In this document: in pieces, positions 4,601 to 61,629 of the stretch | How positions within the stretch are numbered: the stretch's first letter is position 1 | How the letters are laid out: the number at the start of each line of letters is the position of its first letter | NCBI GenBank assembly: GCA_000934665.2 | Contig: KZ538358.1 | Span: forward strand, 1-64,000 | DNA: 64,000 nt | Reading direction: 5' to 3' | Source of the DNA: Catajapyx aquilonaris | Lineage: Eukaryota | Program-made: the position numbers and the translations under genes | Notes under the pieces: generated by a model | Told to the model about the DNA's origin: nothing | Databases searched by the model: none | The model's input: the letters and a program-made list of their open reading frames with translations, nothing else

Positions 4601-7600
4601 TCTGTGGGTTCCACAGCACCACTCCCCCTTCCTAATATTGTGATTTGTGGTGATAGTACATGATACAGGGTGTTTCACTAGGTAGTCGCCCCAAAGAATC
4701 GACTATATTTTTCTTACCACTCTACCTAGAAAGGTGATGTTTGATTTAAATATTACCTTAGTTCATGGAATTGTGGCACCATTCACAATAAATGTTGGGA
4801 TTGAACTTCAACAACCTCCATACATACTCGAACGTGACTCGACGCGACGCTCCTTATTATCGAAGATCCTCCTCAGCATATCCTCATGAATGGTCCGGAA
4901 ACGTTAGAAGACTTGGAAAGCAACATTAGTGCAGTAAGCACTAATGTTCCTTTCCAAGTCTTCTAATGTCGAGGCTCATTGTTGTAAACACAACTCTTCA
5001 AATATCCCCATTCACGGCACTTGTGACCGGTAGGAACAGGATACCCAGTTTCTTGTGACAAAATCATGGTGACTTTTTCGGTCATTCCAGCAGCCTGTGC
5101 TTCACTTTTTCAATTTTTCTCTTTCTCTAAAGGACGTCATCTACCACTGTATTGGTCCAAAACACTCAGTGCAGCAATCCTGACTATTAATGTCGATATG
5201 CTGGGGAGGGCCGTTGATAATTAGGAGCATCGAGTCGCGTTAGAATGCGTATGTAGGTCATTGAAGGTCAAGTACAGCATTTATTGTGAATCAGTGGCGT
5301 AGGCAGGGGGGGGGCCCGGGGGGGCCGGGCCCCCCCCGAAATGTTAAGAAAAAGCAATAAATGCATTACATTATGTAACAGTAAAGAAAATTTTCGCGGT
5401 TTATGAAATCCTCCCCCTCCCCTCTCCGACTCGAATACTGTTATGATACGTCAAAAAAGTCTTACAATAGGTTACAATATTATGAAACGGACCGATCGGC
5501 CATGGGCCCCCCCCGAAAAAAATTTCTGCCTACGCCACTGTGTGAATGGTGCTAATATTCTCATGAACTAATGTCAGTTTTAAACCAAACATCATGTTTC
5601 GAGTCCTGGGGCCGGCAATCCTAACCGTAGTTTTCTGTGGTTTCACACGGTATCCTCAGGAGATTTCCAGGATTGCTTCCTAAATAATTGGCCACAGCCG
5701 CTTCCTTCCTTTCCTATCCTTGTCCCATCCATGAGGAGGTGCGGTGTCGGTGGGGAGTTTCTGACCTGCATCGTGGCGAACGGGGCCCCTGAGGGACTGC
5801 ACACAACCTGCAACTTGAGACATTGCACCTGCACCAGTGTCCCCCCCTCATTATCCCTGTCCTGTCCCCTTGCACTGGAGGAAAGAAAAATAATACAAGA
5901 AAATTGATGGTGGTGTACCACCCCCCAACAGGGCCCATGTAGGCCTGTCATGGGGTAAAACAAAACAAAACAAAATGTATGTTGTTACCCATGTAGATGC
6001 TGCGAAAAGAAAATAAGACCAGATCTCAGGGAATGTGTAACCCTGCAAAGTTTTTATAGAAACAAAATTTTATGAGGTAATCTAATTTGCTAGTTTATTT
6101 TCCCCCACAGGGAATTTACCGTTTGTTAGCCCGGAATCCTGTTATTTGGATATAAATGGAATAGGGGGCATTACTGATTCTCCCAGGGGTCAGCATTTAT
6201 CAGAAAGGGTCGTTAGATACAGGAATGGAGGGGAGAGTGTTTAACCCCAGCCTCCCAACCTTGCTGTCAATTCAAGCCTTGCATCGAGGTATGGATTAGG
6301 GAGTTTAAATTATTGCCAGAATATATCCTCCTTCTCGTAACAGGGAGGCATGCAGAGTGTGGTCAGGACATGCATCTCCAGTAAAAAAGACAGCAAGTTA
6401 CCTGTCTCAGTTACATTTAGAATGCACCTTCACCCAAATATGTAAACATACCTAATAATATTAGTGATCTACAAGGTCACTATTACTGTTACGTCAGATG
6501 TTGTTCCTAAATATCAGCAAGTTCGGAGATGTATGAACCAGCTTAATTTTGTAGGTTGAGTGTCACAGATATGGAATGTAATACTTGATTTGTAGTCAGT
6601 GCAGGTCAACAACCTTGTGAGGAAAATCACAGATATAGAGCCTGGTGCAGTGCCCAAGTCCGCAGTCCAAGGGGGAGTGATGGAGTACTCACTACAGTTC
6701 TGGCTGCCAATTTTTGTGGATGTGGCAGCATTTTTTGTGTCTGCTGGAGGGTTGCAGACAGGCAGGGGACTTTTGCTGTCTGAAACTGTTTCAAACAATT
6801 TGTTGACACCATCAAGTTGCACCTTTAGTCCTGGTGTCAACAGTTGAGTGCCCACAAATTGTTATATTTTTAAGATTATTATTATTATCATCACTACTTT
6901 TCTATAATCCGTGCTGAAAAAGAATATCCAAATCCACAAAAAGCAAGTTAAAACTGGAGTGAATATGTTATCACACTTCCCACTCTCTTCCCAGCTCTTG
7001 AAATGTGGGCTTGGACAGTGCACCACTACGTATGTGGAATAAACTGGAACCCTTCACAAATGTGTTATTGTTGCTTGCTTCTGGAGAGTCATCCATGTGG
7101 AGAATGTTTATTCTTGAAACTTCAGGGAGATAGAGCATCGTTGCAATAACATACCACAGATGGCAAGGTCTCGGGTTCGATCCAAAATCTGGGCTTTCCC
7201 CCCTTCATCTTGTGCAGAGTTGGGTCGTGTCATGTGGAATCTCCATTAGACTAATCCACCCTAGGGAACTCACAAAATGACTGTATATCACACATTGCAC
7301 TTGCACCTTGCACCTCCCCTCCTTGTCACTCCCACCTGCAGACCCAGTAGCTTTGCAAAATGATTCCACTTTGTATGCTATATGGTATCATAAATGATAC
7401 AGAATTGACATGTGTGACACCACCCTATAAACAAGTTGACTCATCACCTAGGTAGTAGTACCCATAGATTTTCACATTCCCCTTTAACAATTAGACGACA
7501 TATAGCGGTCAGAGACGGTGGGCCCCATGTCAATGGAGGCGAGACATGCACTGGTCATAGCGCCCTGGTGGACTTTCCGAACGGTGACTCATCACCAATG

Positions 7601-8887: not shown

Positions 8888-11726
8888 GAAGACAGCATAA
8901 TTGCAAGTTGGAGATGGAGGAAACAGAACTTTATTTGTGCTTTCACGATGCCTAATGTACAGTATGTATTGTTTTTTTTACGGGTATTCCATTATGGTGT
9001 GGATACTCACATTGTTGTCTTGGGTGGGCCAGGTCTGAATTCGGAAACCATAATAATTTTCAAGGTCATGTAAAACTAGGTTGTCATGAGAGGTGAGGCA
9101 AGCATACACAGAGCGTTCCGAGTATGCTGGTCGTTTTAGCTACTTCAATCACCTGGGAATCATTGGGCTACAAGCTACACAAACTACTTGGAGCAATGTT
9201 AATGAGAACTAACGACTCCTATACACCCTGCGTTCAGAAAACCATCATTTGCAAGTGCATGAAACTTTTTCTTGTTATGTGGATGAGCGAAGCAGGTATT
9301 CCAAAAACCTAGACTTATTAGTGTCTTAGGCAGCTTTTATGGGGACTGCTGGGAAGGCATTGTACTGCAAAAACCTGCTCCATGCTCTTGCATGAAAACT
9401 ACATGCTTGTTATGGTAGTTGGACAAATGCAATGTTAGCCTATTTCTACATGGCCAGCTTAGGTTTTATTGTAGTTACTACTGGTTTTATGACTTGTGAT
9501 CACAACTTATATTTTTAAATATACTTCAACATCTTGATATCATCTGATAGCATTAACAATGGAGGAGACCAGGTCTAGTGTACACAGACACTTTGAAGGC
9601 ACAGTTAGTGTAGAAACTACTGTTTGCAAGCCCTGCTTCAACAATGGTGACAGGATGTGGAATAAAGCATTTAGCAGTTATCAACAGGCATGATACCAAA
9701 TGAGAATTTTAGAACTACTTTTTAAGTTCCTGCCTGCTGCATGGCTCTTGTCAAAAGTTTCTACCTGTCTCCCTATCCTGCAGTAGTGACTTCCAAGTGT
9801 GTTCCCATGAAGTTTTACAGGTCGGTGCACACTTGTGGGGTTGTTAATATGTTATGTTCCACAGTTGGAGACCAGGCAAGTTATGCAGCAGGTGAAAACA
9901 CATGGAGCAAAGACCTCACTTGACATTTTGTCCCTTGATAATTGCCAAAATCATATATGGTTTGGCCTGCTGAGAGCCTTTTTCTTTATTGTGCCCTATT
10001 ATTAATGTTCATTCCACATCCTGTCAGAACTGAAGAGCCTTTTTTGCTGTTACTGTACTGTTAGTTATTACAGTTAGGCAGACACTTTAAATCAGAGCTT
10101 GAATAATTACGTGAGCTAGGTCACCCGTCGGTCCACAACCTACTGCAGTTTTAGGGAGATTGAAATTTTCCTAGCAGATTCAGTGGTGGTTTTTTGCCCT
10201 GTTGCATTAACGAGAATGACAGAGTCTCAAAGATATCTGAGAAGGTGAGAAGATATATTTTTTTATATGCAAAATTGCAACTGTGGGACATTCTGAATTT
10301 CTGTAAGTGATGGTGAAAATGTGAAGAGAATGCTTGCCAGCCCTGGTTTCCTCTAATGATATTGTCAAGATTTGAAATTTTCTGGGTATGGGTACAATTT
10401 TTGTACCCATATGCCACGAAACCTTGATACTGATATTCTGTTTGTCATGTTTAGCTTATTTTTTCCTTCACTTTCTGTGCTTATAGAAAAAAGACGCCAG
10501 CTCGTTACAGGTCATGGACAAATGCAAATATGTAAGACTATTCATATAATTATGTCCTAAGGATTTTTTCATAGTTATATCTAGTTTTTGTACTTGTGAC
10601 CAGAGCTGCTTTGTTTACATGGATAATGTCTGGTAGCATCAGTAGCTATATTGAGGGGTTTTTCATCAGTGTAGATTATAAATGAATGTTCTACTGATTC
10701 ATAATATTACAATCCAGGACAAAGGGAGGAAGGTTGGAAGGGGATGGTACAAACCAGTGCATAAGGCAGCTTTGAAGATTAGTGGTAGGCAAGGGTCTTT
10801 GTGATCATAAGACTTCAAAAATTTTGAACATTCCCTAAAGTAAATATCCTTAGTTTCTTAGTTTTCTCTTGCCCAAATTGAATGTATGATGCATACTGTG
10901 ACTTGACAATTGGTGCGAAATTGCACACAGTTCTCACCTGCACCCACATTTCCAGCTTGAATATGCCCTGAGTGGATCAGGTAATGAAAGTGTGGCAATT
11001 GAGACACCCACAAAATCTGATTCTAAACTTTGGCGAACACCACTATTGTGTTGACTTGGGTAGTTGGTGGCCTAACATCCTGAAGAGAGTAGATTTCTTA
11101 TAGTTTCATTTCTAAATTTGGCATTAGTGATATGCCTGTGAGGCTGAGGTGGACCAGTTTTTAGAAACCACCCTTCTGGTGGGTCTACTGGCATGCTAGT
11201 GTGAGATGGGATGTAGTCTACGTTTCCTATCCAAAAAATTACGTTCCTACTATAATTTGACACCACTGTGTGGCTAAGCAAAAAATAAAAATAAATTAAT
11301 TTGTTGCTGCAAAACTGATTTCCACTAGGTTTTTGTGATATGTAAGGTGATGAGTTGGAAGCTGAGTGATGTCAGGATTGGTTACTCAGCTGTACAACAG
11401 AATCTCGACTTAGTTCCCGGTGACATGTTTATCAGAGAAAATATTTTTGACAAATAAGTTATAGGAAAGCAAGCACTTAACAGATCAGCATGCCAGTAAA
11501 ACCCATGTTATAAACACCAGTTTTTACAAGTTCCGACTGAGCATTTTTCTATGAAAGATAAACCCAAGTGTACTCTGTATAAATGTGTGCACCAAAGGCA
11601 TTTTTATCAGTGGTGGCATTTGATCAAATGTTGACGGTTGGTGTTGCGATTAGTATTTCTGTGTATTGCATGTAACAGGTAATACTCTGCAAGGGCACAG
11701 AACCCTCTCTTCAGGTGGTTCTTGCA

Positions 11727-12092
11727 ATAATAATAATAATAATTAATAATAATAATAATAATTTGTGGGTAATGCTTTCACCCCTTCCGGGGTATATCGC
11801 ATGGACCTTTATTGTACTTTGAGTGATTCAGTACATGGTGCCTATTTAATTAAAGCCCGGGCCCACAGGCAGGATGACAGGAGGGGATGTGCAAGGTGCA
11901 GTGCATCTGACGCTGTGGCCATTTTTAGTGAACTCCCCCGGATGGTTTAGTCTGGGAAATACCACCCGAGACGAAGCCAGAGGTGACCCTGAACTCTGCA
12001 CGAGATGAAGGGGATGTCTCCGGGCTGGGATCGAACCCGGGACCTTAACATCCGTGGGCGCATACGTTACCGCAGCACCACTCCGCCTCCCC
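11727..12092 (-). mobile_element. tRNA-derived SINE, dominant family, full length
   Basis: Head GGGGAGGCGGAGTGGTGCTGCGG..GGTTCGATCCC; body nearly identical to the 31251 and 36734 copies; (ATT)n tail. Confidence 0.9.
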
Positions 12093-19540: not shown

Positions 19541-20122
19541 TACGAGGGAGGGTCAAAAAGTTATCTACCTAGGTATGAAGGACATGTGTTATAACTTATT
19601 CAATGTGATTTTTTCTCTATGTAATCTCCCTTCATCTCAATGCACCTGTGTAATTTGTCTGAAAGCGATCCGATCCCACTTGAAAAAAATTCCAAAGTTT
19701 GGTCTGCAATCTATTGGTCTACCGCCATTTTCAATTCATTATCAGCGCAAAAATGACGTCCCCGAAATTCGTATTTAGGTGACGAAGCCACTCTGGGCCA
19801 GGTCAAGAATGTAGGGTGGATAATTCATCACTTGGAAACCCCAGTCTCTGATGGCATCTTGAATAACGCAGCAGGTGTGTACTGGGGAATTGTCGTCGAT
19901 CAGACACACACCTCTGGTGATCTTCCCGTGTCGTTTTGAAGCAATTATTTCTCTCAGTTGCTTTAGTAGGTCAGCGTAGATACTGCCGGTGATTGTTGTC
20001 TTATGGTGCATGTTGTCTACCAATAAAACACCTTCAGAATCCCAAAATATGTGGCCATAATCTTGCCCCACGAAGGTTACGGATGGCACTTCTTGGGTGG
20101 TAAGGAATTCGCATGCTTCCAT
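19541..20122 (-). mobile_element. Mariner transposon remnant with transposase fragment
   Basis: TIR-like TACGAGGGAGGGTCAAAAAG. Minus frame reads FWDSEGVLLVD..TITGSIYADLLKQLR..DNSPVH..YPPYILDLA (a decayed YSPDLAP). Confidence 0.85.
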
Positions 20123-20199
20123 TGCATGGACTCCATATGTGTTTCAGGATCCCAGGTTTCGTCTCCGGTCACTATCTGGGGATACCGTCCCCTCTCGTA

Positions 20200-22845: not shown

Positions 22846-32186
<9,341 letters not shown>

Positions 32187-32258
32187 CTTCTCCTGCAATT
32201 GAAATAAAACAGCATGTGACTCCAAGCATGTGACCCACCAAATCCGGTTCTAACTCAC

Positions 32259-33340
32259 CCCCTCTGGCTCTCAACCCAGTCCTACCAGCACACACTCAAA
32301 CCCGGCACCCGGCAGTCTCCAACCCACCAACAGGCCAATATGGAATCGCCACAGAAACCAAAATACGGCTAGAAGGCGAGACACTCCGCAAGTAGTGGGC
32401 AGGTGACACTCGAGCAGACGAGGAGGAATAGAGCAGGGTTGACGCAGGCCTAGTCTCGTGACACCCCCCCTACTTACGCCCAGAAAATGAGTACTAGAGT
32501 ATGATTGTTGCGGCAACGTTGGCGCAGTCACAAGATGCCAAAGTGGTGGCTGGAAGGTGGGGGGTGTGACTCAGGGGCGCGTATGAATTCACTGTACTGA
32601 GGGCTGGTCATGAGCTGATAAAGTGATTTGTCAGCTGTGGGTACACGAAAGGTGTCGCCGAAGCTAGGGGAAAGGTGGGGTGATTTTTATTTTTAGGAGC
32701 TGCAAACCCTGGGGATAATCATGCTCAGATCATGAGGCAATGCATCATATACTGATAATCAACGACGGGTCAATAGCATGAGCATGATCTAGTGGTGTGG
32801 TCGAAAAGTAAATAAAGATATTCGATCGCAATGCAGCATGGTTTTTATTTCCAATCCTGATGGTGGTCATCGGTGGTCATACACAGAAGTTAATCTATTA
32901 ATCACTACAAGGTGATTAACTAGCATGTTGTTGCGTAACATGATAAGTAAATGTGGATGAGTCGCTTTAAAATTGAGTTTGCATCCAATCGACTTAACAT
33001 GGATACGGCCATATTTACAAGTTGACCAATAACAGCATCAGAAATAGATCACGTGATCTAAGACTCACAAGATGGCGTCGTGTTGCATTAGTAGTTTGAA
33101 CCTGGCCACCCTGAAACAGGTGCTGGAGAAGGGTGGAAAAAAAGAGATGGGATAAGGCGAAAAGGGGAGCCATACCCCCAGTTAACCAGCCCCTGCCTTT
33201 ACCTGCGGGGGCTTTTCCGCCCAAATTCTTCATTTCTTAATTTTACATTAGATCCCAAGCCCGGGGTCCTGTGGGTCCAAACGCAGCCTGGCCCCGTGTG
33301 CTATCTTCAGGGCTCGAACCACGCCTGGCACGTCCATAAA
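32259..33340. promoter_or_regulatory. Bidirectional CpG-rich promoter and 5'-UTR region of V-ATPase A and NAA50
   Basis: Head-to-head genes with locally high CpG. CCAAT at 33026-33030, palindrome TAGATCACGTGATCTA at 33045-33060, YY1-type CAAGATGGCG at 33068-33077. Confidence 0.7.
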
Positions 33341-36300
33341 ATGACTCGGTATGACTGCATGCCTGCATTTCCCACCATCTGGTTGATATAATAATACGCA
33401 CGTGTGTGGGGGCGACGGCAATGCAAGAAGGAAATCAGGCGAGGCCTACTTGTGTGTGAATGTGTTTAGACAGAATGCTGTTCTATTTCATGTTGCCATA
33501 AGCATGTGCTATGTTAGGTAAGAACTATTTCGAGTAGTGCAGAGGGTTGCTGTGTTGCTGGATTATTACTGGTAACTGTAGGCAGATTTATTTTTTTTTC
33601 AGTATGTTTGGGATGAAGCCAAATCAACAAAGGCTGTCTGGTTAATTTCTCTCTGTAATTTGAAGGATTCAGATGAGTGTATCTTTGTATTGGGAATGTA
33701 TGTGATTTAAAATTCCACACTGGTATAGGGTTTAGTTTTGTATGCATGTTAATTAGAAACATTCGTCACTACTTGATACCACTTTCAGGTCCGTTCCTTG
33801 CTATTTAGTTCTCAGAAGATAAAAGAAATCATTGGTAGTCGTAAATATATGACATTCCAATTTTTGACTCTTTGTGTTATTAATATGTGAAAGATTTAAA
33901 ATGCCTTGACTGAGTGCAGGGCTTCCATTGCAATGAGCAGTCCTGAACGGTAAACTTGAGTACTGCCATTGTATGATTTTTTAAATAATAATAATTGGGT
34001 TTAGTGCACTGCTCATGCTGGGCATCTGGCACAGTACCTTTAGTTTTGCTTTTTAGATGTACAAGCTTTTGGTTCTTTTTCGTAACGCCCAGGTACCACG
34101 TAAGCGAAGGGGGATGAGTGGGAGGGGATGTGCAATGTGCAGTGCAGTAACGTTGCTTTGGTCATTTTTGTAATCTCCCCCGGGTGGTGGTTCTAGCAGA
34201 AATCTCACCCGAGACGAAGCCAGAGATGACCCCTAACTCTGCATAAGATGAAGGGGGGAATGCCCAGGCTTGGTATCGAACCTGGGACCCTTACGTCCGT
34301 GGGCGCATACGTTACCACAGCGCCACTCCATCTCCCCCTCATTGTATGATTTTTGTCACATTACTCTTAAGACATTCATTCAAATGATGGAGTCCATGTC
34401 TGAACGTGGTGCAAAAAGTGCATGCATCTTAGACGTAGGTTTCTTGTGATATATGAAACAAAATTGCTTTACATTAATTTGGAGATATTGGCTCCATTGC
34501 AGAGATAATTTCATATCAATTTGATGTTCTACCCAGCCCCCTGACACAGCCCACCTACATGTATGGTGACGGTAGGTTAATAACTGTGTCCTGGCCAGAC
34601 GGCGCTGACGGCGGATGTCCCTCCAGTGGTCCCCTCCATTCTCTGCTGCCATCTTGAAGACCCATTCCGGTGGCCAGCAAGTCAATCTGCCTATGGGTGG
34701 ATGCCCCCAAAAAAATATGCTAAAAAATAAGTACGGTACTGCTCGGTACTGCTAGCTATCTTTAGTCTAAGTGAAATAAATAGTACACTTACAATGCTCG
34801 GTAAATGTGCAGAAGGCATTCTGGACACACCAAAAATGTCAAGTGAGCAGGAGGTGATTGTAAAAGAGCATTGTAAGTGTACTATTTATTTTATTTAGAC
34901 ATGACTAAAGATAGCTAGCAGTACCGAGCAGTACCGTACTTATTTTTCGGCATATTTTTTTTGGCACCCACCCGTAGGCAGATTGACTTGCCAGCCAACC
35001 GGAATGGGTCTTCAAGATGGCGGCAGACAATGGAGGGACCACTGGAGGGATTCCGCCACCAGCGCCGTCTGGCCAGGACACAGGTGTTAACCTACCGTAT
35101 TCGAGGAGTGTCATAGGCCTGGTTCTACCCATGACTAAAATAGAGAATGTCCTTCATGTAAGGCAACCAAAGTTGGACAGGTGTTTGGGAGGGGCCATAA
35201 CCTGTGGGATGAGTTTCATTATTCGTGTGTATGACAAAACCTAAATTGGCATGCGAGATAACTTTGTAATGTAGCTGAAATCACCAAAATCAACTAGAGT
35301 ATTTTGTCTTGTAATGCCACTTGGAACCTATTATGTCACGTTTATGAGCTACAAATGATGTCACCACGGTTGTCACTGCTAAGCACAACAATAACAGTGG
35401 TAACAAAAGTAATGCCACTTGTATCTTATAACAATCAACCACCTACTATAAACAACGTTTGCTGCTGCTAGGTGATATATAAAGAATCTAGCCAGGTTTC
35501 CTGTAGCTCCAAGACTTATTCACCATGGGAAACTCCCCAAGCACTGAAGCCGTTGTTCGAAATTTACTCCGGTTGGGGAACTTGGAAAGCAACTGTGATG
35601 TTGTCCAACGTTTACTCAGTCTGGGAAGCTTGCCGACCTCTGAAGATTGTTATGATGGTTTAGTCAAACTGGTAAACTCCCTGAGCTTGGAGGCTTCTGC
35701 CCCATTTTTGTTGAGCCTGGACGACTGGGTGGACTCTGGCGAGGCTTTCAGAGATTTGCTGACTTTGGAGGACTTGATAGAGCACATAGGTCCTGTACCC
35801 CCAGAACCTGAGGAAGTTGAAGAACCTGCCCCAACATTTCGAATGCGTCTAGGGTATTTATTTATTTATTTATTTATTCAGACCCATTGGGGTTTTAGGG
35901 CAGGTGCATCTCTTGATATAATCTACCACAATTATCTTAATCTAACATTGAGAGTCTTTTAATTATTTTATCAATACAGTTGAAGTTATTTTTAGCTTCG
36001 GAATAATTGCAATGTGTGTCAGATTTATTAAGCTTTCTAGAGGTAAAGAGTGGGATATACTTGGGCATTTCTTCAATGAAGCCTACAGTGGACTTGTTTG
36101 AAAATTAATAAGAAATGATGTTATTTGACCTTACCCATTTTAAAGATTGACTCTTACAAGTCATTGCAGATTGTGAAGAGAAAAACCAGGCTTGTTTTAC
36201 TAGGTAAATCATGATTGTGTTTTGTTGAGTTTGATTGTGAACTTGGTTTTCTTAACGAGAGCTATTTGTAATGTGGGCACGCTGGTTTCCATCCTTAGAA

Positions 36301-36734
36301 AATAGCCTGCCGTTTATGAGGGCAGCATAAGAAATTTTTACAGATGATAATTTTGAACGCTTTCTAGCTCTTGCAAATAGAGCATACCCCTGATTCCTAT
36401 TATGTACATTAATAGAGGTATCATTTTAGAGTTAAATCATTTTAGAAGTGTTAATATTTCTGAGTTTTATATTTAAAATAGTGGGCCACGATCCACCTAT
36501 AACTCATTTCTATCTATTTGTGAAAAATATTTGTGTACGAAACAACTTTCTGGAAGATTGAAAGGGGCACAATGATTATTCTAAAGGTGATTCATGTACA
36601 AGAAAGATGACTTCACAGCTGTTTATTGTCTAGCCTTGGGAGTATTCTAAGTGCTCTTGATCAATCTAGACTTGCTACATGAAACCCCAATTTGTCTTGG
36701 TGGGCCTGTGTGGCTTTGGGGTAACAGAACCATC

Positions 36735-36784
<50 letters not shown>

Positions 36785-39700
36785 CCGGGGTAGTGCTTGA
36801 CCTCATCTGAGGTATGCAGCACGGACCTTTATTTATTATGTCAAGTAAGTACATTTGGAGCCTTTATACGTAGCGCCCGGGCCCACGGGCAGGATGACAG
36901 GAGGGGATGTGCAAGGTGCAGTGCAATGTCTTAAACGTGGCCATTTTTAGTGAACTCCCCCGGGTGGTTTAGTCTGTGGAAATACCACCCGAGACGAAGC
37001 CAGAGGTGACCCTGAACTCTGCACGAGATGAAGGGGGTGTCCCCGGGTTGGGATCTAACCCGGGACCTTAACATCCGTGGGCGCATACGTTACCGCAGCA
37101 CCACTCCGCCTCCCCTAACAGAACCATTATTGCTCATCTTGTGTGCCGCAGCCCAAAGAACATTATTGGACTTTGCCAATCTGTAGCTTATCAATTGGCC
37201 ACAGCCAACGACAACAATGAGTAGCCAGGGCCCACTACTTCATGGTAATGCAACCCAAACTCCCCATCTTCATATATTTATCCCAGGTACAGGAATGAGA
37301 GCACAAGATACAACCAGTGGGAAAGGTTAGATAAGGGGGGCTTGGAAGCTAGTTCATTTTTAAAAGGGGAAAGGGTTATCGTGAGAGGCTCTAAACTCGA
37401 CTTGGGCCATTAAACTGCACCAAGATGGTTTTACAGCCCTGGTGTCATAGACCAGTGGAATTTTTGCACTCAGAGAAATTAGCTACAGACACCATTGTGC
37501 AAGTCTGTGACCAGCTATGCAACTGCCAGTGTGGTTGTAAAAAAACTTGTTGCATGCATGTTCTTTTCAGGAAACTATTTTTATCCAGCATTTTTGTTTG
37601 GAGGGTGTGGCTTCTTTGTCTCCTGACTAATGGGAGATTAGTTGCCTCCAGATGTGTTGATTTTTGGATTGGAGTTAATGGGAAGAGAGCATGTGCAGCT
37701 GTTGATATGTGTCTTATGGAGGCTACAGGCATGCTGTGTGTAGAGAACAAAATAATGCATCTCTTTTCTGATAATCAGTCTGAAAGTATCAGAGTAATGT
37801 TTTTATGATGATGCCTCAACACTAATTGTTTCAGCAATCCTAGTTGCACCAAGACCAGGTTGGAATCACCTTGAAAGACTGCAAGATATGCATGCACATT
37901 CTCTCCACAATCTGTTAATTCTGTCACTTGCTTACATCTGAAACAGGACAGCTTTCCCACTTCCTATCCAAATATCCTTATAATGTTTTTGTCCTCTAAG
38001 CTAATGTGCAATAAGGTGATGTGATAAATATAAACATGTCACTTATTTTTTAAATGAAATCCTACTCTAGTACAGAAATTCTTTCTCTCTCTTTTTCTAG
38101 TGCGAAGATAGAACTGGGCGATGTTACTCCACACAACATCAAGCAGCTCAAACGCTTGAATCAAGTGGTCTTCCCTGTGTCATACAATGACAAGTTTTAC
38201 AAAGATGTTCTGGAAGCTGGAGAACTTGCCAAACTTGGTAATACAAAACCAGGACAAAACATTCTAAATTCTTCCTTTAGGAACTTGAGTCTGTGCCAAG
38301 GCCTGCTGTGCAGGGTGCACTTGATCTGAAATATCTTGCCAATCAATTGTGGCACTCTGAGAATTGTACAGAGAAAAGAAAGTGTCCAAAACCTCATTCA
38401 GAATCTGGTAATGAAATCAGAATGCATAAACTCCACATATATTGTCCTGCAGGAGCTCACAAGATATTTGTAGGGAAGGGTGTAATGGGTTTAAAATTTT
38501 AATGGTTATTCAGATATTAGGTTGTGCACTATTGTCAGTTCAAGCTCTTGCCCAACTCTTATGTTCATCAAGGGAGAAATGTTCACAAATTTGAATGATC
38601 CATAACTCCGTTAGCAAAATATATTTCAGAAATGGCCATATGCACATTTGTTTAGGGCGGAGTACTTCCACTTTAAAAAATTTGAACAAAATCTGAGATA
38701 CTAAGGGTAAATGTTGTATTGAACTGATGTGGAACGACCCAAAGGTGGATTTTAAAAGTCAAATGCATGCATCCCTATGGTCAAAACTTGGCCAAAAGTT
38801 TATTCCACATCCAAGTAACTGTATGAGAATATGGTTACAGTAATAGAGGCAATATCCTTACTGGGAAAATCGTATGTTCTTCCTTACATCTCAAGAGCAC
38901 CATTATTGTTGTATGTTATCATGAGAGTCTGATGCTAGAAGACAAGACTCATTTGCATTAAGTGCACTGGTGCAGGTGTTGTTCATTGCTACGAATGTCT
39001 TATATATTAAGACGTAATTTTAATAGCATCATCTCTTTGGTAATAGATTAATAATTGATAATTTCTTTTCACAGCCTACTACAATGACATAGTAGTTGGA
39101 GCTGTATGCTGCCGCATCGATACATCGGAAAACGCACGCCGCCTTTACATAATGACATTAGGCTGCTTGAGGCCATACCGCAGGCTTGGAATAGGAACCA
39201 TGATGGTGGAGCATGTGCTCAACTATGTCCAGAAAGAAGCCAACTTTGACAGTGTCTTTCTGTAAGCATGTTTTCATGCATTTTCTAGCATGTTAACTTG
39301 TAGTCTGAATAGTTTTTTTTTAGGTAATTTAGGCCATTAGTTGTAATTGCGAGCAGAGGGAGTTGGCATACAAGTGCTTTCACAGCTACAATTCAGTTTC
39401 CCAAGTGTGTAACCTTGAGGACTCGACCGCTTCCTTCCATGTATTTTTACCCTTTGGTGGATGGAAAGGAAGCTTGGTCCTCCATGCCTTGCATGATGTA
39501 GGGAATGTGTCTTATCAGAAAGTAAAGTAATTTTGGATACAGATTTATTAACCATGTATTACACATCGTGTATTGAGAGTAACAACGACATTGTGCAAAC
39601 GCCATAAGCTTCAAAGTTGGTCCTGTCAACCACAGTGTGGCTTGATGTGACAGTTAGCTTCCACTAGATGGCAAGCAAGTCAACAAATGATACGGTTAGG

Positions 39701-41523
39701 ATATGGTATGAAGTGGAGATAATCCAAGGTCGTTGAAAATGGCGTGTTATTTGAATGGGCTGAAGCAGCATTTTTTTTTTGGAGCTGATTTGATATAGAC
39801 GTGGATATGAAATATCCAATTACATGTCTAAAACTGCGAAGAGTAGCTCTCTCATCGCCATTTGCGGCCATTCTAATTTTGTCAGCACTATTTCATCACA
39901 ATTTTTTGGCGGCACAGGCACAGTATTGCCTGAGGGTTGAGCCCTAAGTCATTGTTCACATTTTTATTCAAATACTGTAAGATGTATGGAGATGATGACC
40001 TTTACTGCGTTTTGAAGGTCCGGTGATTACAATAAATTTGATCTGGTATCGCCCATATCACGAGGGAGGTGGGGAAACGAAAGGGGATTGTGACCCCCAC
40101 CATTCCATCATTGCATGGGGGGGAGGGGGGGGGGGTGTTCCCTTTTGTTTCCCCCCCCCCTCCCTCGCGATGTGGGCGCTATCTATCGCCAGAGCTGCAA
40201 AGCTTAGCAAAGGTCATCTCTGTATATGTTACTGTTCTTGAGGAAAAAAATACGCCCCATGACTTTTGACTCAAATCATGTAACTTCAAAGTCATTGGGT
40301 CAGAGATGACCAAAACATCACAAAAACCATCCTTACGTCGCCTATGATGAGAAAAAGGCATTAGAATTCTTATATTCCCAAAATCAGAAGGGTTAATGTG
40401 AAAATACAGTGACTGGGATACATTAATGCACAACACAATTTATGAATATTTTTTTACTTTCAGCTACAAATTTTCCACTGGGCTGAAATTGATAAAAATT
40501 GATGCAATACTAGCCCGCACTAGCCCCTAAACCTTGTCTAGAGGTGGTCAAAACTACTACTACAACACCCACCTTAACATTGTTGGAGGATAGTACCAGC
40601 TAGTAATTGGGGAAGTGTTCTCAAGCGTGTCGGGGTATTAGTGTCATGTGTGAAGTGAAGAGAGGCAGCCCTCAAGTGACCATGTAGTGCAGCAGGATGC
40701 ATTACATGGTAACAGGGCTCTTCTTTCTGAAATCAACTGTGATTAGGGCTTGTATGTGCTAGAGAATAATGCTCCTCCCCAGTTACCAGCTGGAATTGCC
40801 CTTTCACAACATGGGGCACCACCACACTGTACCCTCATCATGAAAGACCACCTAAATCTTAAGTTGCTTGAGAGATGGATCAGTAGAGGAGGGCCAGTTG
40901 CGTTGCTTCTTAGGTTGCCTTTTGTAAGGAAAAACATTGTCTACCATGTTACGAGCAAACTACGTTAAATGGGACGCTTGCTGTGGTTACAGCTGAGGTG
41001 CTACAAAACTTATGAACATGTATCAAATAACATCACATTTGGTTTGCAACAAAAGGCACCTTTATTGAAATTTATTGAAAAGATAATGATGGGAGGAAAA
41101 AACAACTGGGTTTCCTTTGCCCCAATGTAAACTAGATACGTGTGTGATTAACTGATTATTTGATCTGGCTGCCAATTGTTACTACATATTGGATATGGAG
41201 GAGTCACATTGTCATTCTTATCCAACAGGCACGTGCAAGTGAACAATGAGAGCGCTATTCAATTCTACCGGAAGTTTGGTTTCGAGATTGTGGAAACAAA
41301 GGAGCACTACTACAAGCGCATTGAGCCAGCAGATGCCCATGTCCTGCAGAAAACCCTACGAACACGCCCCAACAACACTGCTTCCAGCCCATCGCAGCCC
41401 CAGGCCAATGGTGATCACAACCCACAACACAACCACAACCATCATAACCACCTTGTTCACCACAATGGGAGTAATCAAAGCATCCAAGAAGACGAGAAAC
41501 GTGACCGAGAAAAACAGGCCTGA
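33341..41523 (+). CDS. NAA50: N-alpha-acetyltransferase 50 (san orthologue, 208 aa); exons 33341-33348, 38101-38237, 39075-39261, 41229-41523
   Basis: Spliced product MTRAKIELGDVTPHNIKQLKRLNQVVFPVSYNDKFY...AYYNDIVVGAVCCRID...LYIMTLGCL.PYRRLGIG...FLHVQVNNESAIQFYRKFGFEIVETKEHYYKRIEPADAHVLQK. All junctions are GT-AG with consistent phases; total 627 nt. Confidence 0.95.
33982..34339 (-). mobile_element. Diverged subfamily of the dominant SINE
   Basis: Shared head and body (CACCCGAGACGAAGCCAGAG); TSD CATTGTATGATTTTT at 33967-33981 and 34340-34354. Confidence 0.85.
34570..35097. mobile_element. Long-TIR (about 230 bp) foldback MITE
   Basis: CGGTAGGTTAA..CTGTGTCCTGGCCAGACGGCGCTG.. with an inverted copy ending TTAACCTACCG. 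Confidence 0.85.
35525..35854 (+). CDS. Candidate orphan ORF (about 110 codons) nested in NAA50 intron 1, interrupted by a LINE tail
   Basis: TATATAAA at 35476-35483, Kozak CACCATGG, N-terminus MGNSPS, Leu/acidic protein-like composition. It runs into the (TATT)n tail of an antisense LINE. Confidence 0.4.
35855..36620 (-). mobile_element. Decayed 3' fragment of a non-LTR retrotransposon
   Basis: (TAAA)n tail at 35855-35878. Minus frame reads IPLLMY..G....LQELESVQ...*KFLMLP..TAGYFLRMET, resembling a LINE ORF2 post-RT region, with stops. Confidence 0.6.
36734..37115 (-). mobile_element. tRNA-derived SINE, dominant family, young full-length copy
   Basis: Long (AAT)n tail; TSD TAACAGAACCAT at 36722-36733 and 37116-37127. 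Confidence 0.92.
40740..41080 (+). mobile_element. Tc1/mariner-superfamily (DD37D/maT-like) transposase remnant
   Basis: SQHGAPPH....KDHLN....RWISRGG resembles QQDGAPPH...RWIGRGG. Confidence 0.6.
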
Positions 41524-50641: not shown

Positions 50642-52139
50642 CTAGTAGCACCTCCTTGATGATTCGGGATACCTTTCCTTCAGTTCAGTCTTGAATTGCC
50701 TGAAGAGCATCCTGTTCCGCTCTTGATCCACTTCCTTCCCTGCATGAAAACCATCTCTGGTCTTCCAACCTCTATGCACCAAAAATGCATTACCTCCCAG
50801 GACTGAGAACCTCCACCCAGCTACATGCAGTTCACATGCATGGCTCACGCGGTTAAATCCATACTGCCGGAAACGCTCATCATAGAAAGGTGCCCATGAC
50901 CTTGCTATATGAAATGGTTCCCAAGGATCTTTCCACAACACCTCAAATAAAGGTGACACACTGCCTGTGTCACGTTCCCAAGCAGTGTAATCAGTGTTAG
51001 CTTGGCATCGCCAACAAAGTTCCTGGTAGAAAGGTCGCGCATCACCAGCATGGACTTGTGATAATAACTCAAGCTTTCGACGGGGAATGGTGGATCGCGA
51101 TTCGTATGCTGGTAGGACATACACTGTTTTCTCACTTCGCCGTGTTGGGTTAAACAGGCGTGCATCCCGGGCGTAGTGCAAAAATGACTCCCGTAAATCA
51201 GCACTTGGGACTAGATCAACATCTACCACTAGATGAAACTCACTCTGTGCATTTCGACGTGCAACATTCCGCAGCAAGTTAGTTGGGTAAGGGACATCAT
51301 AGGAATATGATACATCAGACTCACGTCGCAGCAGTGCTTCACGTACAGTGTCACATGACTCAAAAGGGGGTGTAACAGTAGGTGTAGAGTCACCTGAGTT
51401 TAGTGGCACAACAACATGCACTGTCAGATTGGCACGCATTAAAGGCCAGCATCGTCGCAGGCCTTCTATTGCTGAGACAGTGTCAGTGACTTCAGACCGT
51501 CTAGGTATAAAAATAGCAGCAGAGACAGGTCCACTCCAGAGCTGAGCTAACTCCAAAAGGTTCCAGAGATGGTTTGGTGAACTCTGAGTGACTAAAGTGA
51601 CATCCTGTGTCAATGTGGTGCTTGGTCCAGGGGCAGCCCAGGGGCGGTGATGTGGCCAGGGTGGTAGGGCCCAACCATGAGACAGGCGTTCCACCACTCT
51701 GTATTCTCCACTGCTGTCGAGGACTCCACCTACACAGGCCTCCCGAACCATGTCTTTAAGACTTGTCTTTGCCTGATGAAACAAATAAAGTCTTACAATG
51801 CAATGCTTGTTTTAAAGAGGGTAAGAACACCCCATATAATTTATCATGCACATTCATTTATTATATGGTGGATAATCACTCCATTATTCTACCAAATTTG
51901 GCTTGAACTATGCAATAGCTTGCCTGTTCAGTGTGTCCATTCCCTGTACTTCCTCCTCCTCCTCCTCCTCCAGATGATGAAGAAAACCTTGGGGCCCTGG
52001 TGTCTGGGTCAACCATCTTCCTCTGCCTAGCATCTAGCCTGGACAGAAGGAGTAGATGCAAGCCCTGCAATACCACCACCAGGGCCACCAGAAAGAGGAC
52101 CAGGCGTCCAAATGCTGCTTGGGGGGCGCACACCCACAT
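50642..52139 (-). CDS. B4GAT1: Beta-1,4-glucuronyltransferase 1 (GT49 family, type II membrane, about 448 aa); exons 52139-51924 and 51772-50642
   Basis: N-terminal TM segment (LVLFLVALVVVLQGLHLLLL), YPTNLLRNVAR, DxD motif VVDVDLVP, WEPF, YDERFRQYGFNRVSHACELHVAG, AFLVHRG. The exon join uses CAG|GCAAGC (GC donor). Confidence 0.88.
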
Positions 52140-54161: not shown

Positions 54162-56538
54162 ATGGGAGCCAAGAGTCTGTGGTGTTCTCACCCCAACAAG
54201 TTCGGACAAGGATCCAGGGCATGGTACGAATCGTGTGCGAACACGTTGTATGTAATGCGTGGTTTCAAACATGGCTACTAACCTTACATTTCGTTTGCTC
54301 TGGTGAGGCTCCGTATGAATTTGGGCGTTGGGCTGAGTCTTATGTTAGCCTTGACCATTTTCATAATTATGCACAGCACGCATGGTACCTCTTGCGCGTA
54401 ATCTTTTAGTGCCGGACAGCTCTTTTGTAATGGTTAAAGCCCATGGGCCGAATTCAGAGAGGTTGCTTAACGTAAACGCGCCCGATTAAATCCTTTAGTC
54501 ATCCTCGATTAGCAAATTTAACCAACCTGCTAATACAAAGACGGCGATTAGCGCTAAACGCCCCCTAATCGCACTTGCTAGCACTTTTAAATTTGCTAAT
54601 CGAGGATGACTAAAGGATTTAATCGGGCGCGTTTACGTTAAGCAGCCTCTCTGAATTCGGCCCCATATTTGTAACTATTAAATGGTTACTCTCTCCGAGT
54701 TAACCCTGGAACCGTGCCGTGGGGTCTTCTTAGACCCCAAGGAAAAATGCATTAAAATGATAATTACAATGAACTTTTGCCATATTTTTTACAGTATATA
54801 ACAGGAAGTGCAGGTTTATTTTGAATTAGCGATCCTTTTAGGCATTGTTCAAAGAATGCTTGTATATAGTCAATACATTGAAGTATTATATAATAATTAA
54901 TAAAAATTAAAATATGGTGGGGTCCGAAAAGACCCCATGGCACAGTTGCCGTAATACTCGTAGGCATGGCACGGTTCCAGGGTTAAAAATGCTTTAAATA
55001 ATGCATCTGCATTGGGCCCTAGTATCAGGCGTTATGTTAAAAATGCTGGTAGCTCCAGTTAAAATGCATGGTAAATTGAAGCCATCATCACTCAAGTCGC
55101 CTAGGTGCTACTGTTGCTCAAAGTGTGTTCCCAAGCTCACAAGAACGAGATTTTTCAAGCAGTTTCAGAACTTTTTGGTATGAGTGAGAGTCAACTAGGG
55201 TTCCACAATCTTGTTTCAGTTCTTTCACACATGCTTTCACTACCACAGATTCTTACCAGCTTGGGACCACATGGCATCTTGCAGCAACAGCATGCTCCCA
55301 CGAGCTTCAAACTTGGAAAATAATTTCTTCCACTTGGAATCTCAAAATTGATTCCAACTTTCATATGCATTATTTGGTTTTTTTAAGCATACAATTTAAA
55401 GTTTTTATACTTGAGACGGTGGCCTTTTTAGTGTCCTTGACCCATTTGTGCACATTTCTGCCTGCATGGGCATTCCCATCTTTCATTTCGTGTTGGGTTG
55501 GGTTGTCTCTGGCTTCGCACAGGGTGGGATTTGCACTTAGATTTAGACTAACCACCCAGGGGAACTCACAAAAAGACCAGTCGCAAAAGACATTGCACTT
55601 ACACCTCCCCTCTTGCCCACCCACGCCAACAAACCCAGGCATTTTGCCGAGAATGGACCCTCGAAACTATCCCTGATGAAGAAAATAGATGTTAGTGCAA
55701 AAACCTTGGAGGTATATACTACGCCCATTTAAAAAGTTAAATAGAAATAATTATCTTTGGAAGTGAGTTGTATACTTCAAGCCCTCCTTTGGTTTACCAG
55801 TAGTGGCTTTTGCCCAGTCAAAAGGTTAGGCTTGGTGGCAAGAGTGATCGACACAGGCTTACAAAATCTGATGCCAGGGTTCTAAAATGCATCAATTGAC
55901 ATACTGTGTTTGGTGGTAGCTATGTGGTATCATGTGGCTCTATTAATTGCAGTAAAAACTAACAGTAAGGGAGGCGTGGTAGTCTAGTGGTTACGCCACT
56001 GGCTAGCCAAGCGGGAGGCCGGGGTTCAAATCCCATCCCAGTCACCTCTGCTTGGCCGGGTCTTTTTCCGCTTTTCACCTGACACGCCGGGGCAGCATTG
56101 CACTCCCTTAGCTGCCCGGGGCCAGAGAAAAGGTCTGGTGTATCTGAGAGAGTCGTGAGTGACTATAAACCGAGGATGCCCCCCCTTGGGAACCTTTCCC
56201 TCCCCCCAAAACGAGCCGAATGGCTCGAGCACAGGGTAATAATAATAATAATAATTTAAAAAAACTAACAGTACTTACTTTTGGAATGCAACAATAGTTT
56301 ATGTGCCTTAGAGTGTTACAATCACTTGTAAGCATGATTTCTAATGCATCGTGACTGTTTTCACAACAGCCGTGCCTGTGCCAACCGTCATGGGATCATC
56401 AGGCGGTATGGGATCAACCTGTGCCGGCAGTGCTTCCGAGAGTATGCCTGTGATATTGGGTTCCGGAAGGTAACAAATTTTTTATATAGGTGTTGTTGGG
56501 TGTTACTACTTTTGATCTTTTCTTTACAGTACGAATAA
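54162..56538 (+). CDS. RPS29: 40S ribosomal protein S29 (uS14)-like, divergent, 56 aa; exons 54162-54223, 56370-56469, 56530-56538
   Basis: [56 protein letters not shown], with a CxxC...CxxC zinc finger. Coding exons of 62/100/9 nt; AATAAA near 56594. Confidence 0.92.
54445..54663. mobile_element. Young palindromic MITE (GGGCC termini, PIF/Harbinger-like) in RpS29 intron 1
   Basis: About 75-bp near-perfect TIRs; 3-bp duplication CAT. Confidence 0.88.
54700..54986. mobile_element. piggyBac-like MITE
   Basis: TTAA-CCCTGGAACCGTGCC ... GGCACGGTTCCAGGG-TTAA. Confidence 0.88.
55968..56255 (+). mobile_element. tRNA-derived SINE (third family)
   Basis: A box TAGTCTAGTGG, B box GGTTCAAATCC, terminal hairpin GAGCC-GAAT-GGCTC, (TAA)n tail. 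Confidence 0.8.
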
Positions 56539-59721: not shown

Positions 59722-61629
59722 ATGAGTGGCAAAATTTTACTTGGCGTTCTCTTGTCCTGTGTTATCCTGCAGGTTGTGCTTGCGTCTCTTTCACCAGAGA
59801 ATGATGATTGCTCCCTGAAGAAAAAGAAGGGCAATTGCAAGGGTCGATTTCAACGCTACTATTACAACAAGGTAAGCAGCATGTAAGACAGTGACAGTCC
59901 TCAACGTGAGACTGAATATGCACATTTTGTTATGTTTTAAGAGGTTTTCAAGAGAAGGTGTAATAGCTGTGATTTGTTATCATTTAAATGGAAGTTGTTG
60001 CTTGGACAGTTTAGTGATACTACAAAGTGGTGAAAATTAGTTTAAATGCTACAACCTTCCTATTCTTTATGAGCTTCATACTGCCATAAGCCACTCGAAG
60101 TGTGAAAAGTGTTATTCGAACTTACTTAGTTCTAGGACAACAAAGACCTGCAGTGAAAATGGTATTCTTTGCATTAATTTACAATATTTTGATATGCTAC
60201 ATGTTACTTGCAAGCGTGGTTTGTGGTTTCTTTGTGGATTCTATCCTCAGCCTGGGCAGCTTTTGTCTTGATTATTTGAAGAAAACTTTGAAACGTATGC
60301 GCTCATGGATGTAAGGGTCCCGGGTTCATTGGGGCCCGGGCATTGGGGGGCATCTTGTGCAGAGTTCGTGGTCATCTCTGGCTTCGTCTCGGGTGGGATT
60401 CCTTGAGACTAACCACCCAGGGGGATTTCACAAAATGACCGCAGCAACGACATTGCCCTGCACTTCGCATATCCCCTCCCAGTCACCCTTCCCTCGCTCA
60501 CTATACCCGGGCGTTATGGAAAAGGACCAACAAAGCTTGTACACCTAAAAAGCAAATAAAGGTACCATGCCAGATGCCCATTAAATGGGAGGTGCACTAA
60601 CCCTATCATTATCATTATCATCATCATCATCATATGATGATAATGATAATAATAATGATAGGGTTAGTGCACCTCCCATTTAATGTTAAGGAGACTGTTA
60701 ACCCTTAACTACGTAGGTGGAGCCTGAGAGGCTCCAAGCACTATTTAAACGCATGTAACTTTATCATTGAATTTTATTTTCCCCTGGCCTTCTGCACCTT
60801 AAAACCAGATTTACCAATAGCTTACAATCTTTGACAAGAGCCAAACTGGAGGCCAGTCTTCTAATGATCTTGGATATGGCATAGATCAGATAACCTATTT
60901 ATCAAATATGGCCTTTACTCTGATTTTTATAGGTATAAATGACATTGTCCATGACCTATTTTACACTGGCAGGAATGAAATACGATATTTAAAACAAAAC
61001 TCCCCCATTTTTGATGCAACATTCAAGACAAGCCCTGTTTCCATTTTCATGGAAGCAGACTTACAGGCATATGCATATTGGAGGGATGATGATTAGGCAC
61101 TTTTTTTAACCACTTAACTGCTTTAATGTACTTCAGGAATAATAGCACTCATGACAAGACTTTCCTGAAATCTTGAGCTGTCACTAAATGGTGGCACATT
61201 ATTCCCTATTTCAGATTACCACCACTTGCAAGAAATTCAAGTATGGTGGATGTCGAGGAAATGCCAACAATTTTGTCTCAAGAGATGAATGCGAAAGAAC
61301 CTGCCATGATAAGGTATGTGGTCAGTGCCACTTTTATCCTTCTGGAAATTTCTAACTATATCTCCTTTCTGTAGCACCGCCACACTAAAAACCAACCATC
61401 TGATTATCATCGCTGCTTGCCTGCTCCTGTAGTGGGCCACTGCAAAGGCTATGTGACACGCTATGCCTATGATCAGGTAAATGCGTTGTCCAAGCTGTGA
61501 CTTTTTCGTCTCATATTTGGTTTCCTTCAGGAATCACACACCTGCAAGAAGTTTATTTATGGTGGATGTGGTGGAAACGAGAACAACTTCCGTAGTCTAC
61601 ATGAATGTAAGAAGAATTGTCTTCAGTGA
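59722..61629 (+). CDS. Secreted double Kunitz/BPTI-domain protease inhibitor (149 aa); exons 59722-59871, 61215-61313, 61375-61476, 61531-61629
   Basis: Signal peptide [21 protein letters not shown]. Domain 1: [45 protein letters not shown]. Domain 2: [45 protein letters not shown]. All introns are phase 0 GT-AG. Confidence 0.93.
60300..60635 (+). mobile_element. Diverged dominant-family SINE in Kunitz gene intron
   Basis: CATCTTGTGCAGAGTTC..TCTGGCTTCGTCTCGGGTGG body; the tail matches the 33982 subfamily. Confidence 0.8.

Follow-up and report, generated by a model that had tools for sequence, protein, structure and literature searches.

A 48-nucleotide tandem repeat underlies an orphan reading frame in intron 1 of NAA50 in Catajapyx aquilonaris

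The gadid antifreeze glycoprotein (AFGP) gene is reported to have gained its coding region through tandem copying of a short unit in DNA that had been non-genic (PMC6410882). Here we describe an open reading frame (ORF) in a 64,000-nucleotide (64-kb) stretch of the Catajapyx aquilonaris genome (GenBank assembly GCA_000934665.2, contig KZ538358.1, positions 1 to 64,000, forward strand; hereafter "the window"), which is a genuine repeat-built orphan reading frame within intron 1 of NAA50. Its closest known kind is the proto-ORF that forms when a short non-genic unit is duplicated in tandem. The likeness to the AFGP gene comprises a tandem-built frame, an ORF that may be older than or independent of its promoter, and the lack of a homologue outside the lineage (PMC6410882). 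The AFGP unit is 9 nucleotides (nt) long, its non-coding ancestor was shown in sister species, and its function is known (PMC6410882). In contrast, the unit of the present ORF measures 48 nt, its copies are 40-55% diverged, and it is known from one sequence alone.

Mobile elements provide a second comparison. Some non-autonomous transposons carry an internal minisatellite beside a microsatellite, among them the DINE-1/Helentron-like elements and the satellite-bearing miniature inverted-repeat transposable elements (MITE-satellite elements). The array described here likewise lies beside a microsatellite, in an intron rich in mobile elements. Unlike those elements, it has no second copy in the 64 kb and contains an open, exon-like frame, and terminal repeats or stem-loop ends were not identified at the locus.

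The reading frame and its tandem array

The host gene is an arthropod NAA50/san gene. Both it and the ORF are on the plus strand; intron 1 measures 4.75 kb, and the ORF sits 2.2 kb from its 5' end. The frame and its parts are as follows.

35504-35506, plus strand: in-frame stop TAG bordering the array on its 5' side, closing the frame upstream of the ATG
35507-35783, plus strand: degenerate tandem array of ~5.8 units of 48 nt (16 codons), found by protein and DNA self-similarity
35525-35962, plus strand: ATG-to-stop ORF of 145 codons, the first 109 (to 35851) coding-like
35525-35542, plus strand: MGNSPS start, homologous to LGNLES, LGSLPT and LVNSLS, which head units 2-4
35525 (start), plus strand: array unit 1, in register, MGNSPSTEAVVRNLLR
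35573 (start), plus strand: array unit 2, in register, LGNLESNCDVVQRLLS
35621 (start), plus strand: array unit 3, in register, LGSLPTSEDCYDGLVK
35669 (start), plus strand: array unit 4, in register, LVNSLSLEASAPFLLS
35717 (start), plus strand: array unit 5, in register, LDDWVDSGEAFRDLLT
35765 (start), plus strand: array unit 6, weak, LEDLIEHIGPVPPEPE
35784-35851, plus strand: acidic, Pro-rich non-repeat tail of 23 residues, GPVPPEPEEVEEPAPTFRMRL
35855-35878, plus strand: (TATT)6 microsatellite, seen in the sequence

An initial annotation of this DNA had described about 110 stop-free codons starting with MGNSPS behind a Kozak word, LLxLxxL-like units, an acidic Pro-rich stretch, and an end at a (TATT)n tract. 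Each of these elements was recovered. We counted 109 codons ahead of the microsatellite and 145 to the stop, the last 36 crossing (TATT)6 and AT-rich DNA; from stop to stop, the frame comprises 151 codons from 35507. The Kozak context CACCATGG places the ATG at 35525, with A at -3 and G at +4. The upstream TAG also forms part of an acceptor-like word, tttcctgtag/C. The GC content over the ORF is 0.48-0.50, as compared with 0.33-0.38 in the flanks, and three ATG-initiated ORFs in the window exceed 145 codons.

The LLxLxxL-like units belong to a strict 16-residue (48-nt) period with the pattern LGN(L/S)x(S/T)xE....LLx. Pairwise unit identity is 45-60%, against ~26% expected from composition. Ungapped self-alignment of the peptide gave scores of 54, 35, 32, and 20 at offsets of 16, 32, 48, and 64 residues, and the score of 54 was matched by none of 500 residue shuffles. 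At the DNA level, the autocorrelation reached 0.49, 0.45, and 0.44 at offsets of 48, 96, and 144, while 1000 codon shuffles peaked at 0.41. The similarity between units begins ~18 nt 5' of the ATG (LQDLFT vs FRDLLT) and fades near 35783. A possible further unit after a short interspersed nuclear element (SINE) (QRTLLDFANL, near 37150) was matched by neither nhmmer nor tblastn and was treated as chance.

The ATG aligns to the Leu codon (CTG/TTG) that heads every other unit. As judged from this alignment, MGNSPS is repeat sequence with one Leu-to-Met change and not a separately evolved motif. Units 2-3 also have the Gly2, and units 2-4 the Ser/Thr at position 6.

The N-myristoylation rule (PROSITE-type) calls for Gly at position 2, a residue other than a charged one, an aromatic one or Pro at position 3, a small residue, preferably Ser or Thr, at position 6, and any residue but Pro at position 7. 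The start of the peptide, MGNSPST, with Gly after Met, Asn at 3, Ser at 6, and Thr at 7, fits this consensus. The G..S/T pattern also occurs internally, heading units 2-3, and unit 4 retains only the Ser. The initial annotation was thus right that the start satisfies the MGxxxS consensus, but the motif is a property of the repeat and not of the N-terminus. Since MGxxxS is inherited from the unit LGN(L/S)x(S/T), it does not constitute independent evidence of design. The protein searches described below returned no relatives in which the motif might be a conserved N-terminal trait. In a survey of human clones, 339 of 4,369 start with Met-Gly, and two prediction programs picked 90 of those (PMC4550359). 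By itself, a Met-Gly start is insufficient to establish myristoylation. The present ORF shares the Met-Gly start; its own Asn at 3 and Ser at 6 fit the pattern M-G-x-x-x-S/T. It differs in that its motif comes from a repeat unit and its protein is putative.

Three words were found upstream of the array.

35311-35331, plus strand: direct repeat copy 1, 21 nt, with the 13-nt exact core GTAATGCCACTTG at 35311-35323
35409-35429, plus strand: direct repeat copy 2, 21 nt, 98 nt downstream of copy 1, core at 35409-35421
35476-35483, plus strand: TATA word TATATAAA, 42-49 nt upstream of the ATG

The duplicated 13-mer noted in the initial annotation is real and exceeds shuffle expectation: the two 21-nt copies are 86% identical, and GTAATGCCACTTG has only these two matches in the window at up to one mismatch, a number (at least two) reached in none of 100 shuffles. 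The TATA word is also present, as reported. It occurs six times in the window, compared with 3.2 expected, and at least six copies were found in 11 of 100 shuffles. On the sequence as read, no Inr-like (initiator-like) word was seen at the expected distance. The proposal that the ORF has its own promoter therefore comes down to the TATA word. TGTCAC occurs three times in 45 nt (35334-35378) between the 21-nt repeats, either as binding sites or by chance.

Coding signal and searches for relatives

A codon log-odds table was trained on 807 codons from the window's own exons. With this table, the in-frame score of 35525-35851 was 0.15 per codon; the remaining five frames ranged from -0.24 to 0.02, and the score after the microsatellite (35879-35959) was -0.24. 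Among the window's 38 stop-free stretches of at least 109 codons, the ORF ranked 7th. The six above it are all exon-like (three ATP6V1A, and one each glycosyltransferase, NAA50, and USF-like), and the best unassigned stretch scored 0.025. Because a repeat inflates the codon sample, we collapsed the array to one consensus unit plus the tail. The resulting 45 codons (the consensus unit and a 29-codon tail) scored 0.245; of 1492 open non-genic windows, 1 (0.07%) scored as high, and of 483 GC-matched ones, none did. The 29 codons at 35765-35851 scored 0.30, a value reached by 0.3% of open non-genic windows of equal length.

The five full units differ from their consensus at 74 positions and contain no insertion or deletion (indel): the spacing found by nhmmer is exactly 48 nt, and the MAFFT alignment is free of gaps. 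In the same window, the SINE copies and the arms of a foldback element showed 90 gap openings in 473 mismatches, a ratio of 0.19. At this ratio, ~14 indels would be expected in the units, and the Poisson chance of none is ~1e-6. At a ratio of 0.05, the chance would still be ~0.025.

Pfam returned no family for the ORF peptide. A HMMER search of 1.84 billion protein representatives yielded no accepted homologue and only two matches, P0001 and P0002. Both proteins contain internal repeats and aligned piecemeal, in 8-9 short stretches, of which the best for P0001 spans only the Pro/Glu-rich query residues 79-104; both were rejected. A word-indexed protein search gave nothing at near or longer lengths, the Protein Atlas held no usable match, and scans of viral and metagenome contigs revealed no relative. 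By sequence, the PDB yielded 18-bit matches to KDM3B (E 0.035) and SPT16 (E 1.3), which we treated as noise, and no Rfam family was found over 32000-39000. We also considered whether the LLxLG units represent leucine-rich repeats (LRR) or tetratricopeptide repeats (TPR), and rejected this reading: Pfam gave no such match, and a 16-residue period is shorter than an LRR or TPR repeat.

Competing explanations for the frame

We give close to an even chance to the view that the ORF is a host coding sequence or proto-gene, young and restricted to its lineage. The frame and the unit length appear to be kept as if they mattered, and residue identity seemingly hardly matters. Such a combination would be expected of a coding sequence that is young and under loose constraint, and it agrees less well with a simple minisatellite in decay or with a fragment copied from coding sequence elsewhere. 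The initial annotation had proposed a nested, same-strand, lineage-specific gene. The same-strand position, the apparent restriction to the lineage, and the exon-like codons all stood; at best, the ORF is a young, species-specific proto-gene with a putative function.

Several results weigh against host coding, and most of them would suit a non-coding 48-bp minisatellite that has decayed, whose unit was stop-free by chance, and in which coincidence accounts for the TATA word as well as for an untranslated ORF with its MG start. We regard this second explanation as possible but somewhat doubtful. Between units, pS (synonymous divergence) is 0.53 and pN (non-synonymous divergence) is 0.475, giving a ratio of 0.90, where neutral simulations had a median of 0.88 and 59% of them lay at or below 0.90. 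Unit identity by codon position is 0.56 at the first, 0.43 at the second, and 0.54 at the third. With a neutral-like pN/pS and third positions no more diverged than first, there is no sign of selection on amino acids. The five-unit frame stayed open in 9.5% of neutral, substitution-only simulations, and 12% of simulations reached its codon score, which is thus not above neutral decay of the consensus. The consensus unit by itself scored 0.149, as did or surpassed 4.8% of random open 16-codon windows. The length of the ORF is ordinary, since of 100 sequences simulated from the window with a second-order Markov model, 61 contained an ATG-initiated ORF of at least 145 codons. Upstream of the ATG, the array continues for ~18 nt up to the in-frame TAG, and the TATA word recurs in the window, at six copies against 3.2 expected. 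The stretch was first picked for being open and protein-like, which is a selection bias. No homologue was found anywhere we searched, as far as sequence comparison reaches, and the single-sequence AlphaFold2 model, with one short helix per unit, has a mean predicted local distance difference test (pLDDT) score of 46. The absence of close relatives is weak evidence, because this species' own NAA50 also lacks a near-identical entry in the protein collection (best match, 69% identity over 73% of the query). Against the minisatellite stand the lack of any indel among 74 mismatches at a locus where 0.19 gap openings per mismatch are the local rate, the exon-like scores of the tail and of the consensus plus tail, and the result of Tandem Repeats Finder, which detected no other array with a period of at least 24 nt and more than 2.1 copies in the 64-kb window. 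No second minisatellite there was suited to a comparison of indel load.

Coding-like codons and an indel-free frame would also fit earlier selection elsewhere, if the ORF were the 5' part of a transposon or virus cargo gene or a gag-like gene, or a copied gene fragment, later truncated by a long interspersed nuclear element (LINE). We consider this origin unlikely. The coding-like signal ends abruptly at the microsatellite, and the hairpin word ACCC-CAAT-GGGT adjoins (AATA)n on the minus strand; a short hairpin by a simple tail occurs at some LINE and SINE 3' ends. Intron 1 has also received other insertions, namely two SINE copies, one with a 12-nt target-site duplication, and the foldback element. 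The searches speak against such an origin, as neither Pfam, the 1.84 billion protein representatives nor the viral and metagenome contigs showed any similarity. No long terminal repeat (LTR), terminal inverted repeat (TIR) or target-site duplication was found around 35099-35880, and 35099-36720 has no second copy in the window, where the SINE family matches seven other places. The capture of a viral or transposon cargo gene, as raised in the initial annotation, accordingly found no backing. The same annotation had the frame cut by an antisense LINE, of which (TATT)6 alone could be demonstrated. On the minus strand of 35870-36725, with two frames through an (ATA)n tract set aside, the longest frame encodes 57 amino acids (aa), and in Pfam nothing above the cut-off matched the three longest (48-57 aa). 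No reverse-transcriptase or endonuclease remnant was found 3' of the ORF on this strand, the stretch after (TATT)6 has no second copy within the window, and no continuation of the frame past the insertions was found.

If the ORF is host-coding, its formation may have proceeded as follows. A 48-bp unit in NAA50 intron 1 would have been tandemly duplicated about five to six times, after which the copies diverged. In the first full unit, the opening Leu codon (CTG/TTG) turned into ATG, and the myristoylation-type start MGNSPS was thereby gained along with the repeat. Each unit would encode one 16-residue segment, modelled with low confidence as a short helix, followed by the acidic Pro-rich tail. 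Transcription might start from the TATA word ~45 nt upstream, and the unspliced product would be a peptide of 145 residues ending in AT-rich DNA. The transcription, translation, lipidation, and splicing of the ORF, and any function, are predictions from its sequence.

NAA50, the surroundings, and significance

The exons that bound intron 1 and the candidate donor within the ORF are the following.

33341-33348, plus strand: NAA50 exon 1, coding part, ATGACTCG, then donor GTATGA
35852-35859, plus strand: candidate donor GG/GTATTT, with the exon end at 35853, leaving 2 nt of a codon
38101-38237, plus strand: NAA50 exon 2, acceptor ttttctag/T, coding for (R/G)AKIELGDVTPHNIKQLKRLNQVVFPVSYNDKFYKDVLEAGELAKL

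Joined, exons 1 and 2 read MTRAKIELGDV, in agreement with the arthropod NAA50 N-termini compared (MTRGRIELGDV, MTRSKIELGDV, and MTRNSIELGDV). The placement of the ORF in intron 1 of NAA50 by the initial annotation is hence sound, as is its donor at 35853/4, with GT at 35854 after GG. From the ATG to 35853 there are 329 nt, that is, 109 codons plus 2 nt, and exon 1 ATGACTCG consists of 2 codons plus 2 nt. The donor therefore agrees in phase with NAA50 exon 1, and exon 2 gives the third base of the codon. A predicted splice from 35853 to 38101 reads ...RMRL-G-AKIELGDV in frame. Judged by sequence, exon 2 would be the most obvious and a frame-compatible acceptor for the donor at 35853/4. The spliced product (35853/4 to 38100/1) would be in-frame NAA50 with a 110-residue N-terminal extension. 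Among the 22 GTs of the ORF, three share this phase, and of these only that at 35854 has a purine at +3; the phase match itself is about a one-in-three event. We also tested a cassette exon between the acceptor-like word at 35506/7 (tttcctgtag/C) and the donor at 35853/4, and rejected it: read from exon 1, it enters the +1 frame (ORF at 35472-35660) and stops near 35660, and its length of 347 nt shifts the frame.

Compared with canonical arthropod NAA50/San, the ORF is located on the same strand and within the same gene, its candidate donor shares the phase of exon 1, and it could replace the 3-residue exon 1. The six NAA50 N-termini compared start with MT(R/K) or MRV and have IELGD within 9 residues, unlike the ORF. 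The lengths of NAA50 relatives offer no precedent. We considered 120 relatives longer than 170 aa among the matches listed: 118 measure 171-252 aa, none falls within 253-426 aa, and the two longer ones contain ankyrin-repeat Pfam domains (427 aa) and PF00909 (629 aa). In the titles and opening abstract lines of the NAA50 literature, among the matches listed, no extended or lipidated isoform was found. An alternative first exon of NAA50 takes a small share of the likelihood we allot to host coding. We hold it very improbable that a repeat-born first exon, used from an intronic promoter, produces a species-specific NAA50 with a 110-residue, myristoyl-anchored N-terminal extension.

Other features of the gene and its surroundings were recorded. 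The C-terminus of NAA50 at 41400-41520 is rich in His/Asn/Gln (...NPQHNHNHHNHLVHHNGSNQ...), a tail that is missing from the six relatives compared. NAA50 (plus) and the gene for V-ATPase subunit A (minus) are arranged head to head, a few kilobases apart (window positions 29148-33348). The latter has its exons at 23.5-29.5 kb and matches Pfam ATP-synt_ab. Human ATP6V1A and NAA50 are presumably divergent neighbours too; if this arrangement holds, the two would form a very old conserved gene pair, possibly with a shared bidirectional promoter. A single-exon frame of 389 codons at 50645-51811 (minus strand) matches Glyco_transf_49, a dystroglycan-type glycosyltransferase (E 1.7e-94), and a mariner-type transposase fragment is present at 19778-20143 (minus strand; Pfam Transposase_1, E 5.6e-11).

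The foldback element covers 530 bp at 34569-35098, and ~430 bp separate it from the ORF downstream. Its centre is near 34833, and the two arms show 83-89% complementarity. No other copy was found within the window, and it is probably a foldback or MITE-type insertion. A SINE family derived from transfer RNA (tRNA), with an (ATT)n-type tail, occurs at nine places in the 64 kb, in copies 66-90% identical. A clean 12-nt target-site duplication, TAACAGAACCAT, accompanies the copy at 36735-37117.

36735-37117: SINE match
33984-34337: SINE match
31248-31611: SINE match
11726-12092: SINE match
25367-25674: SINE match
60292-60616: SINE match
7154-7328: SINE match
4321-4632: SINE match
55464-55599: SINE match

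If the ORF is untranslated, it serves as a caution, in that a decayed minisatellite can look like a gene, with a stop-free frame, codons like those of exons, Met-Gly at the start, and a TATA word close by. Since decayed minisatellites can mimic genes in this way, motif-based calls need a check for internal repeats first. If it is translated, it would be a clean, datable case in which tandem duplication of a short unit within an intron produced a peptide of helical repeats together with its start codon and a signal for lipid anchoring, and it might give an essential, deeply conserved enzyme a new N-terminus. Should the spliced, myristoyl-anchored form be real, a sequence made de novo from a minisatellite would have redirected to membranes an N-terminal acetyltransferase that is conserved and associated with the ribosome.

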